A stretch of 64,000 bases of DNA from an uncultured Actinomycetes bacterium (GCA_937989945.1 CALKIG010000114.1:3330-67329); one strand, 5' to 3'; counted from the first letter of the stretch, positions 7,628 to 8,369 are shown. The notes: generated from the letters alone by a model not told the origin. Translations and numbers: made by a program.

Positions 7628-8369
7628 CAGTTTTGTTACTACCAATTCTCCTCAAGTGGGGAGAGGAGTTGGCGGCCAGGTCATTTCTGCCTGACTCTGC
7701 ATGTCGCCATGCAGCTCGGACTATATCTTCACCCATCTGACTGATGGGGTTCGGCGTATAGTCTCTGAGGGTTCTGAATTCCTACGATCTCATGTAGCTT
7801 CCACTTCCGGTATCGGCCATCCCCGTTCATCTGAAAGGCCAGGCGCACCAGCCGATCGAAACCCGATCGATTGAGATGTGCTCCTGCCTCCATCGATTCA
7901 ACGATGATGGCAAATATTTCGAAAGTGCGTTGCTTGTCTGAGAGCAATGGATTTCGATGAAAGAAGGGTATGACCCGTTCCATGAGGTGACGTCTGCGTC
8001 TGACGACGTAGACCAGAGTTCGATCTGACGACCTGCTGAGGTCGTTTTGCCTGATCGAACCGCATCCGAGTACCGATTGGAATGTGGACAACACTGTTGC
8101 CCTCTCTCCGTTCTGGCTTACCCGGAACTCAGGAACAAGTTGGAAACCATTCGTCAGGTCGAGTCGTCGAGTGACTCCAACTGAGAATGAACCTTCTCCA
8201 TCGGCGAATCCACTTAGGTAGGACTCCAGCCTTCCCTGCTGATTATCCGCACCGATCGGATTTTCACTTCCCATGTCGCCACCCTACGAAGAGGATGTGA
8301 CATGAATGAGTACCGTCGGATACACGGGTTTTCCAGCATATAGCCGAATTTATAGACAGCAATGGTCTT
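7628..8369 (-). mobile_element. group I intron in 23S rRNA helix 93 (between E. coli U2604 and U2605 equivalents), ORF-containing
   Basis: 742-nt insert. 5' exon ends in U and the insert ends in G. IGS GCUGUCU (8360..8354) pairs with exon AGACAGU, ending in a U.G wobble. Core elements: P AUGCUGGAAA 8339..8330; Q AAUCAGCAGG 8244..8235; R UCAGAGACUAUA 7768..7757; S AAGAUAUAGUCC 7729..7718. P3 is UUCGGC 8348..8343 / GCCGAA 7755..7750. Confidence 0.85.
7729..8274 (-). CDS. LAGLIDADG homing endonuclease, single-motif (homodimer-type), intron-encoded
   Basis: 181 aa. [17 protein letters not shown] is a LAGLIDADG motif near the N-terminus and there is no second motif. Size is like I-CreI/I-CeuI-class enzymes. 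Clearly homologous to the ORF at 9100..9618. Confidence 0.9.

Follow-up and report, generated by a model that had tools for sequence, protein, structure and literature searches.

A putative mobile group I intron with its own homing-endonuclease gene at position 2604 of the 23S rRNA gene of an uncultured actinobacterium

The ribosomal RNA (rRNA) operon on a 64,000-nt stretch of DNA from an uncultured Actinomycetes bacterium (GCA_937989945.1, CALKIG010000114.1:3330-67329; the whole stretch is called the window in the following) contains a 23S rRNA gene that is interrupted by 742 nt of foreign sequence, which raises the question of what kind of element this insert is and what becomes of it in the precursor rRNA. 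We conclude, with a probability of about 0.88, that the insert is a group I intron, mobile and equipped with a homing-endonuclease gene of its own, in a host that is probably a member of the Acidimicrobiia. The insertion site and the architecture are already known; the host range and the sharing of one ribozyme scaffold by four sites are undescribed in the searchable literature. Insertion sites in the large-subunit rRNA are given below with four digits (L2604) and homologous loci with three (L100).

The insert occupies 8369..7628 on the minus strand and has exact junctions. On this strand the 5′ flank is ...CTGGGTTCAGAACGTCGTGAGACAGT and the 3′ flank TCGGTCCCTATCCGCCG..., that is, the gene reads ...GAACGTCGTGAGACAGT, then the insert, then TCGGTCCCTATCCGCCG. 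When this insert and a second one described below were taken out, the exons were collinear with the E. coli 23S rRNA from end to end (74% identity), and the exon junction GAGACAGTTCGGTCCCTATC was gap-free, which confirms the original prediction that the flanks join to the conserved helix 93 sequence. The E. coli copy used for numbering has 2903 nt compared to 2904 nt of the reference, and its index in this region is the canonical number minus 1. Because A2602 lies at index 2601 and the two uridines at 2603/2604 of this copy, the insert is placed between the canonical U2604 and U2605. It differs from an L2593-type insertion, as it follows U2604 and leaves exon 2594-2604 intact upstream of the intron. 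The insertion point belongs to the 3′ strand of helix 93, which we take from the established ribosome structure to lie beside A2602 and the peptidyl-transferase centre.

For the analysis of the fold, the window intron, from which the P6a loop (8212..7790) had been excised, was aligned with 20 homologues lacking an open reading frame (ORF), each with 7 nt of exon on either side, and pairs were counted on a hand-drawn group I structure of 78 pairs that includes the P3/P7 pseudoknot. A structure obtained with RNAalifold was dropped; it paired the 5′ strand of P3 with the 3′ exon and not with GCCGAA, and pseudoknots are not drawable in it. Across the 21 sequences, standard pairs filled 95.6% of the pair cells, compared to 32-39% with the partners slid by 1-3 columns, and compensatory changes on both sides were found in 48 of the 78 pairs. 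None of 500 shuffles reached any of the five fold measures. The row of the window intron contained 71 standard pairs, and three of its seven misses fall in P8 and are alignment-register artefacts. P1 (AGACAGU/GCUGUCU, 7 bp) was 99.4% paired and invariant save for an eighth pair covarying between AU and GC, and the U.G wobble at the splice site was present in 21 of 21 sequences. P3 was 100% paired with covariation in four of six pairs, P7 was 98% paired with two covarying pairs (UA/CG and AU/GC), and covariation extended to all pairs of P5a, P6a and P8 and to four of the six pairs of P5b. The P5 arm of the window intron folds at -32 kcal/mol.

P2 is absent from the structure, the P9 loop GCGA is invariant across the family, and the 3′ part is characterized by two extra hairpins, P9.1 and P9.2, and a conserved GUAACA...UG tail. 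The window intron ends with ...AACAAAACUG at position 7628, the terminal UG being invariant in the family alignment. The catalytic fold is complete and comprises P1 with its U.G, the P3/P7 pseudoknot, the P4-P5 arm, P6/P6a, P8, a GNRA-capped P9, P9.1, P9.2 and the terminal G. The elements quoted in the original prediction (the internal guide sequence at 8360..8354, the P, Q, R and S boxes, P3, P7, P8, P9 and the terminal G) were all found where it had placed them, and the 21-sequence alignment upheld P1, P3, P7, P8, P9 and the terminal G.

The Rfam model Intron_gpI (RF00028), which had been suggested as a check, gave a divided answer. At the gathering threshold no intron was reported in the window; with an E-value threshold a match was obtained at 7697..7953 with 41.3 bits and E = 5.6e-9. 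In this alignment only the P7-P3′-P8-P7′-P9 half is sensible and the 5′ half is wrong. Both the low score and the misalignment are due to the ORF loop of about 430 nt, which splits the core and exceeds the span of the model. Sixteen ORF-less or ORF-degenerate homologues with the identical junction scored 50.3-72.4 bits (gathering score 50), among them L100, which shares 95.9% identity with the window in its 23S exon. The E. coli alignment, the Rfam E-value and the fold counts bore out that the sequence separating U2604 from U2605 is a group I intron.

A group I-derived insert might no longer be spliced, and either be retained in the mature 23S rRNA or be cut out without ligation, giving a fragmented 23S rRNA as with intervening sequences (IVSs). 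There is a precedent for retention, as the L1931 intron of Simkania stays in the mature 23S rRNA according to the title of Everett et al. (1999). For the L2604 intron we consider such a fate very unlikely, since all catalytic helices, the U.G wobble and the terminal G show conservation and covariation over about ten phyla, a pattern to be expected only under selection for ribozyme function. Moreover, 742 nt or a nick in helix 93 near A2602 would fall within the peptidyl-transferase region. Classic IVSs are simple extended hairpins without a ribozyme core and occupy the tips of H25 and H45. The insert analyzed here lies in a strand of helix 93 and has a full group I core, which sets it apart from IVSs processed by RNase III; short non-intron inserts at the sites 23IS2 and 23IS4 of Candidate Phyla Radiation (CPR) bacteria do match RNase III-cleaved IVS sites (Tsurumaki et al., 2024; PMC11270868).

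We searched 185,579 genomes, each representing a species, for AACGTCGTGAGACAGT with any base but T behind it. At least 120 loci matched, all counts being lower bounds, and a homologous intron stood directly after U2604 in at least 94 of them (94/120 among the matches listed). The family is recognizable by the guide GCUGUC, followed by ...GGCUAUAUGCUGG... and the end GUAACAnnnUG before UCGGUCC. Its ORF-less members have lengths of about 260-460 nt and its ORF-bearing members of about 700-760 nt. According to the phylum labels of the records, some of which may be wrong for metagenome-assembled genomes (MAGs), at least 47 loci belong to Actinomycetota (Acidimicrobiia, Solirubrobacterales/Thermoleophilia, Gaiellales and others), at least 17 to CPR/Patescibacteria, at least nine to Omnitrophota, at least seven to Pseudomonadota, at least four to Armatimonadota, at least two each to Dormibacterota, Acidobacteriota and unclassified bacteria, and at least one each to Planctomycetota, Myxococcota, Chloroflexota and Dadabacteria. 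The original prediction knew of no such intron in Actinomycetota, a view that does not hold given at least 47 species representatives with this label that carry a homologue with the exact junction. With respect to the host, the nearest 23S exons are those of Acidimicrobiia MAGs (L100, 95.9%; L087, 93.6% identity) and not of CPR/Patescibacteria, and the GC content of the window is about 62%; the host is probably a member of the Acidimicrobiia.

rRNA operons are notoriously mis-assembled in metagenomes, and the insert could in principle be an assembly chimera or the product of wrongly joined rRNA reads of more than one organism. The base-exact junctions in at least 94 independent species-representative loci, including the closed chromosomes OY969921.1, OY969572.1 and OZ252240.1, and two soil metagenome contigs with a 94.5%-identical intron and matching exons make this explanation extremely improbable. 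These two intron-bearing close relatives were obtained when metagenome contigs were searched for an intron-less allele with a lineage-specific 28-mer over the 3′ junction. The sole intron-less match, L123, has flanks of only about 80% identity and is uninformative on polymorphism within the lineage. At eight loci labelled as CPR or Gammaproteobacteria (L020, L099, L059, L077, L108, L121, L006 and L049) the first 40 nt after the U2604 junction belong to a different, AT-rich insert with a recurring UUUUCGUC(C/U)AUAA motif, which in L059 stands before the usual GCGCUGU guide. This AT-rich insert may be an extension of the P1 loop, a second element or a twintron.

The L2604 intron contains an ORF for a protein of 181 amino acids with a single LAGLIDADG motif, on which the original prediction was silent. 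From its start in the 3′ strand of P5b the ORF runs through the P6a loop, which it fills, to a TGA stop codon in J8/7. The first 20 residues are encoded by P5a′, P5′, the Q box AAUCAGCAGG (read N-Q-Q) and P6, and the C-terminus by P6′-J6/7-P7-P3′-P8. Because the N-terminus is read from ribozyme strands, the sequence ...GA(D/V)NQQ(G/E)R... recurs in endonucleases of different sites. The protein matched Pfam PF00961 (LAGLIDADG_1) with 64.9 bits (cut-off 23.1; E = 1.4e-17) over profile positions 1-101 of 102, and its sequence matches in the PDB were I-OnuI-family domains, I-TnaI and I-Vdi141I. An AlphaFold2 model (mean predicted confidence, pLDDT, 84) with the elements H-E-E-H-E-E-H shows the alpha-beta-beta-alpha-beta-beta-alpha core of a single-domain enzyme. 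The best Foldseek match of this model was I-TnaI (5gkk) with a root-mean-square deviation of 1.1 Å, 35% identity and a template modelling (TM) score of 0.84 on the target; the top matches also included I-Vdi141I (TM 0.88). In public data 1325 homologues were found at E <= 1e-5, almost all of them unnamed, and in a sample of 40 the residues G22, D25, G26, E27 and G28 were invariant, with the catalytic glutamate located within the GxxDGEG motif. The protein is 97% identical to those of L122 and L124, the two soil contigs mentioned above.

It might be argued that the ribozyme splices while the endonuclease is inactive or domesticated, e.g., as a maturase, so that the intron is inherited only vertically and is immobile. 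Some LAGLIDADG proteins do act as maturases, and many family members have lost the ORF, the intron persisting without an endonuclease. At the U2604 site, ORF-full states of about 700-760 nt, ORF-degenerate states and ORF-less states of about 260-320 nt occur across many phyla; the closest relatives L100 (3441-3913, minus strand) and L037 (120-499) keep endonuclease remnants in which the codons of the LAGLIDADG motif are preserved, the start codon is gone and large internal deletions are present. The window ORF, however, is of full length with the invariant GxxDGEG motif and the catalytic glutamate, and its loop-located part showed a ratio of nonsynonymous to synonymous substitution rates (dN/dS) of 0.15 against the copy of L087. 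Judged by its sequence, the ORF is intact and under purifying selection. Its composition is atypical for the host: the GC content at third codon positions is 0.54, compared to 0.62-0.78 for 25 ORFs of the window, which were taken as all those of at least 350 amino acids from a mechanical six-frame scan and may not all be genes. The near-identical architecture and the patchy occurrence across unrelated phyla fit ongoing horizontal homing. We therefore regard an immobile intron as unlikely and favour a mobile one.

According to this interpretation, the precursor rRNA would excise the intron by two guanosine-initiated transesterifications, and religation of the exons to GAGACAGU-UCGGUCC would restore helix 93. 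With an intron placed within helix 93, next to A2602, these organisms would have to hold back ribosome assembly until accurate self-splicing has taken place. The endonuclease is predicted to cut intron-less 23S DNA as a homodimer around GAGACAG/TT/CGGTCCC, the intron-less sequence GAGACAGTTCGGTCCC being the putative substrate for site-specific double-strand cleavage. Repair of the break from an intron-bearing copy would then spread the intron by homing, and the different ORF states could reflect a cycle of gain, decay and loss.

Several points weigh against this interpretation or limit it. The window copy stays with 41.3 bits below the gathering score of 50 of RF00028. Between the two halves of the presumed target, taken about the insertion point, 7 of 14 positions agree, a modest and statistically weak palindromy for a homodimeric enzyme. 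The pairing P10 between GACC in the P1 loop and GGUC of the 3′ exon, put forward as possible by the original prediction, may exist, as at least 3 nt complementary to UCGGUCC were found within the P1 loop in 69 of 71 family members; this is weak evidence, and in the window intron the pairing involves 4 nt. Finally, splicing, exon ligation and endonuclease activity are what we infer from the sequence, and so is the essential nature of splicing, for which the count of rRNA operons covers the one operon of the window.

The second insert of the same 23S gene, which the original prediction did not mention either, is also a group I intron. It was placed after U1931, a classical site, because this gives the canonical reading in which the 5′ exon ends with U and the intron with G; a P1/guide pairing was not recognized in it on inspection by eye. 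Its 172-residue LAGLIDADG protein is 40% identical to that of the L2604 intron, and the P4-P6 segments of the two introns share 85% identity, the value for P3-P6 being likewise about 85%. Across 17 genomes carrying both introns, the identity of P4-P6 was 0.68 between sites and 0.68-0.71 within a site. P7-P9 was more site-specific (0.79 within L2604 compared to 0.68 between sites), and the endonucleases sort by site in BLAST rankings. Homogenization of the two introns within a genome was considered and dropped, as the difference between the P4-P6 cross-site identity within genomes (0.718) and between genomes (0.682, sd 0.073) was marginal (n=17).

Further members of this group of introns are found in L122 (soil metagenome contig Ga0299907_10015592), a close relative with 23S exons 94.6-98.7% identical to those of the window. 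L122 carries the L2604 intron and lacks the L1931 intron; it has an ORF-less intron after U1911 (L122:131-433) and an ORF-containing intron after U1923 (L122:446-1184). In P3-P6 its L1911 intron shows 96% identity to the L1931 intron of the window, which is as close as orthologous L2604 introns are among themselves, while P3 is changed in a compensated manner (GCUGGC/GCCAGC versus CCUUGC/GCAAGG) and the 5′ guide region differs. The L1923 intron has the P9.1/P9.2 tail and the 3′ end GGnAGUAACAAnAC(U)G in common with the L2604 type. One ribozyme scaffold thus occupies at least four sites (1911, 1923, 1931 and 2604) in this group, and it is chiefly the guide sequence, P3 and the endonuclease that vary among the members of the lineage. 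Introns may have relocated between these four sites. We tentatively propose, as a possibility about which we have some reservation, that one group I scaffold repeatedly re-targeted itself in bacterial 23S rRNA genes by exchanging only the guide, the P3 pairs and the endonuclease. Site 1911 was not found among the sites that the consulted papers name.

The original prediction did not recall 2604 as an occupied site. In fact, the position is listed for the 23S rRNA genes of CPR bacteria as a recurrent site of LAGLIDADG_1-encoding inserts classified as group I, belonging to the recurrent sites 23IS12-14, and several of the CPR insert sites are stated to have been without earlier reports from other bacteria (Tsurumaki et al., 2024; PMC11270868). 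The window intron falls into this class by its insertion at E. coli position 2604 together with a LAGLIDADG_1 ORF, and it shares with the CPR inserts the single-domain PF00961 endonuclease and the assignment to group I by Rfam. CPR loci such as L014, L058, L071 and L078 begin with the same GCUGUCU guide and the same P3/P4 sequence. In contrast to the published class, the host is an actinobacterium, the survey being restricted to CPR; the class was described there without structure, splice junctions or biochemistry.

The bacterial L1931 introns (Thermotoga, Simkania and Synechococcus C9/C1; PMC1995217) belong to the same ribozyme lineage as the L2604 intron. One cyanobacterial 23S gene contains three endonuclease-bearing introns (L1917, L1931 and L2593), and ORFs extend into the ribozyme core in cyanobacterial 23S introns (Haugen et al., 2007; PMC1995217); Synechococcus C9 is a precedent for a bacterial 23S gene with several introns that bear endonucleases. 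Like these L1931 introns, the L2604 intron has no P2 and an ORF reaching from a peripheral loop into the core, and its endonuclease has as best structural match I-TnaI, the enzyme of the Thermotoga L1931 intron (PDB 5gkk). The two types differ in site and guide, and their endonucleases, which BLAST ranks by site, share only about 40% identity. The extra hairpins P9.1 and P9.2 mark the L2604 type and are absent from the L1931 and L1911 types.

The L2593 introns (Chlamydomonas Cr.LSU with I-CreI, I-MsoI, and cyanobacterial L2593) break the same stretch of helix 93 at a point 11 nt upstream of L2604, and the recognition sequence of I-CreI overlaps position 2604. Their endonuclease, a homodimeric LAGLIDADG protein with a single motif, resembles the L2604 enzyme; I-CreI was absent from the best 60 of 89 PDB sequence matches of the 181-residue protein. 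The L2593 ribozyme has a short P5, P2 and P7.1/P7.2 (Haugen et al., PMC1995217), none of which is present in the L2604 intron. I-CeuI, whose site is that of the L1923 introns, was a weak sequence match of the L2604 protein (E = 1.4e-7). The L1923 introns occupy a different site, and the L1923 endonuclease of L122 is only 41% identical to the L2604 protein.

The coordinates of the exons, introns and structural elements are listed in Table 1. The rRNA operon lies on the minus strand with the 16S gene at 13741..12213, the 23S gene starting at 11841 and the 5S gene at 7265..7149, and the interrupted gene is the only 23S rRNA gene within the window. ARAGORN found no tRNA genes across positions 1..64000, including the 370-nt 16S-23S spacer (12212..11842). 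Compared to E. coli, the 23S gene contains three extra blocks on the minus strand, 11523..11564 (42 nt, after about E. coli position 274), 11459..11495 (37 nt, after about 301) and 10275..10343 (69 nt, after about 1404), which are probably lineage-specific helix expansions. The Rfam model LSU_rRNA_bacteria matched 8329..11841 with model positions 1-2925. The end of this match falls within the L2604 intron, as the last approximately 300 model positions were forced onto intron sequence and the true 3′ exon (7627..~7335) was missed.

Table 1. Features of the interrupted 23S rRNA gene and its two introns (positions in the window).
Feature	Position	Strand	Basis
23S exon 1	9750..11841	-	alignment to E. 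coli 23S
Second group I intron, after U1931, 708 nt	9042..9749	-	alignment to E. coli 23S
172-aa LAGLIDADG ORF of the L1931 intron	9618..9100	-	
23S exon 2, A1932 to U2604	8370..9041	-	alignment to E. coli 23S
L2604 group I intron, 742 nt; first nt A 8369, terminal G (omega-G) 7628	7628..8369	-	
P1 exon strand AGACAGU, 5′ exon ending in U2604 at 8370	8370..8376	-	fold alignment
P10 candidate GACC, complementary to 3′-exon GGUC 7625..7622	8364..8367	-	weak
P1 internal guide sequence GCUGUCU, intron nt 10-16	8354..8360	-	fold alignment
P3 5′ strand UUCGGC, partner 7750..7755	8343..8348	-	fold alignment
P4-P5-P5a-P5b domain	8238..8337	-	fold alignment, folding
P4	8333..8337 / 8238..8242	-	
P5	8325..8328 / 8246..8249	-	
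P5a, extended P5b hairpin between strands	8313..8319 / 8252..8259	-	
181-aa single-motif LAGLIDADG ORF, motif LSGFADGEG	7729..8274 (reads 8274..7729)	-	
P6 5′ strand AGGG 8234..8237 and P6a 5′ strand CUGGAGUCCUAC 8218..8229	8218..8237	-	
P6a 3′ strand GUAGGAAUUCAG 7774..7785 and P6 3′ strand CCCU 7768..7771	7768..7785	-	
P7 5′ strand GACUAUA (R box)	7757..7763	-	fold alignment
P3 3′ strand GCCGAA (pseudoknot with P7)	7750..7755	-	fold alignment
P8 hairpin CCCAUC-AGUCA-GAUGGG	7732..7748	-	fold alignment, folding
P7 3′ strand UAUAGUC (S box)	7719..7725	-	fold alignment
P9 hairpin, GCGA tetraloop	7697..7714	-	fold alignment
P9.1 7690..7695/7675..7680 and P9.2 7663..7672/7642..7653	7642..7695	-	fold alignment, folding
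23S exon 3, U2605 to 3′ end (end approximate)	7335..7627	-	alignment to E. coli 23S

A literature search covering few subscription journals and not the intron tables of the Comparative RNA Web Site found no 2604 intron outside CPR; within the same range of journals it found no rRNA intron of Actinomycetota, and no paper was found that joins group I intron, 23S rRNA, LAGLIDADG and Actinobacteria. Algal papers containing the number 2604 were discarded, as it stood for page numbers or accession digits and not for the intron site.

The site and the mechanism are not new, and the parts worth following are the wider distribution and the evidence for site-switching. Introns at the 2604 site alone occur in at least 94 species representatives, of which half are soil Actinomycetota; this corrects the picture of bacterial rRNA group I introns as confined to a few thermophiles, intracellular pathogens and giant sulfur bacteria and to CPR. 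Under the re-targeting reading proposed above, L2604 introns would also be a widespread feature, undescribed outside CPR, of nine or more non-CPR groups as judged by their MAG labels. Automatic annotation would truncate a 23S gene such as that of the window, and 23S-based surveys will mis-handle such genes. The natural series of ORF-full, decayed and ORF-less copies and of one ribozyme at four sites could serve in studies of the homing cycle and of the change of targets, and the single-motif endonuclease is a candidate for a new meganuclease specificity with a universally conserved 23S rDNA target. If the scaffold was indeed re-targeted as proposed, this would be an example of ectopic transposition of introns in bacteria that is recent and can be traced.

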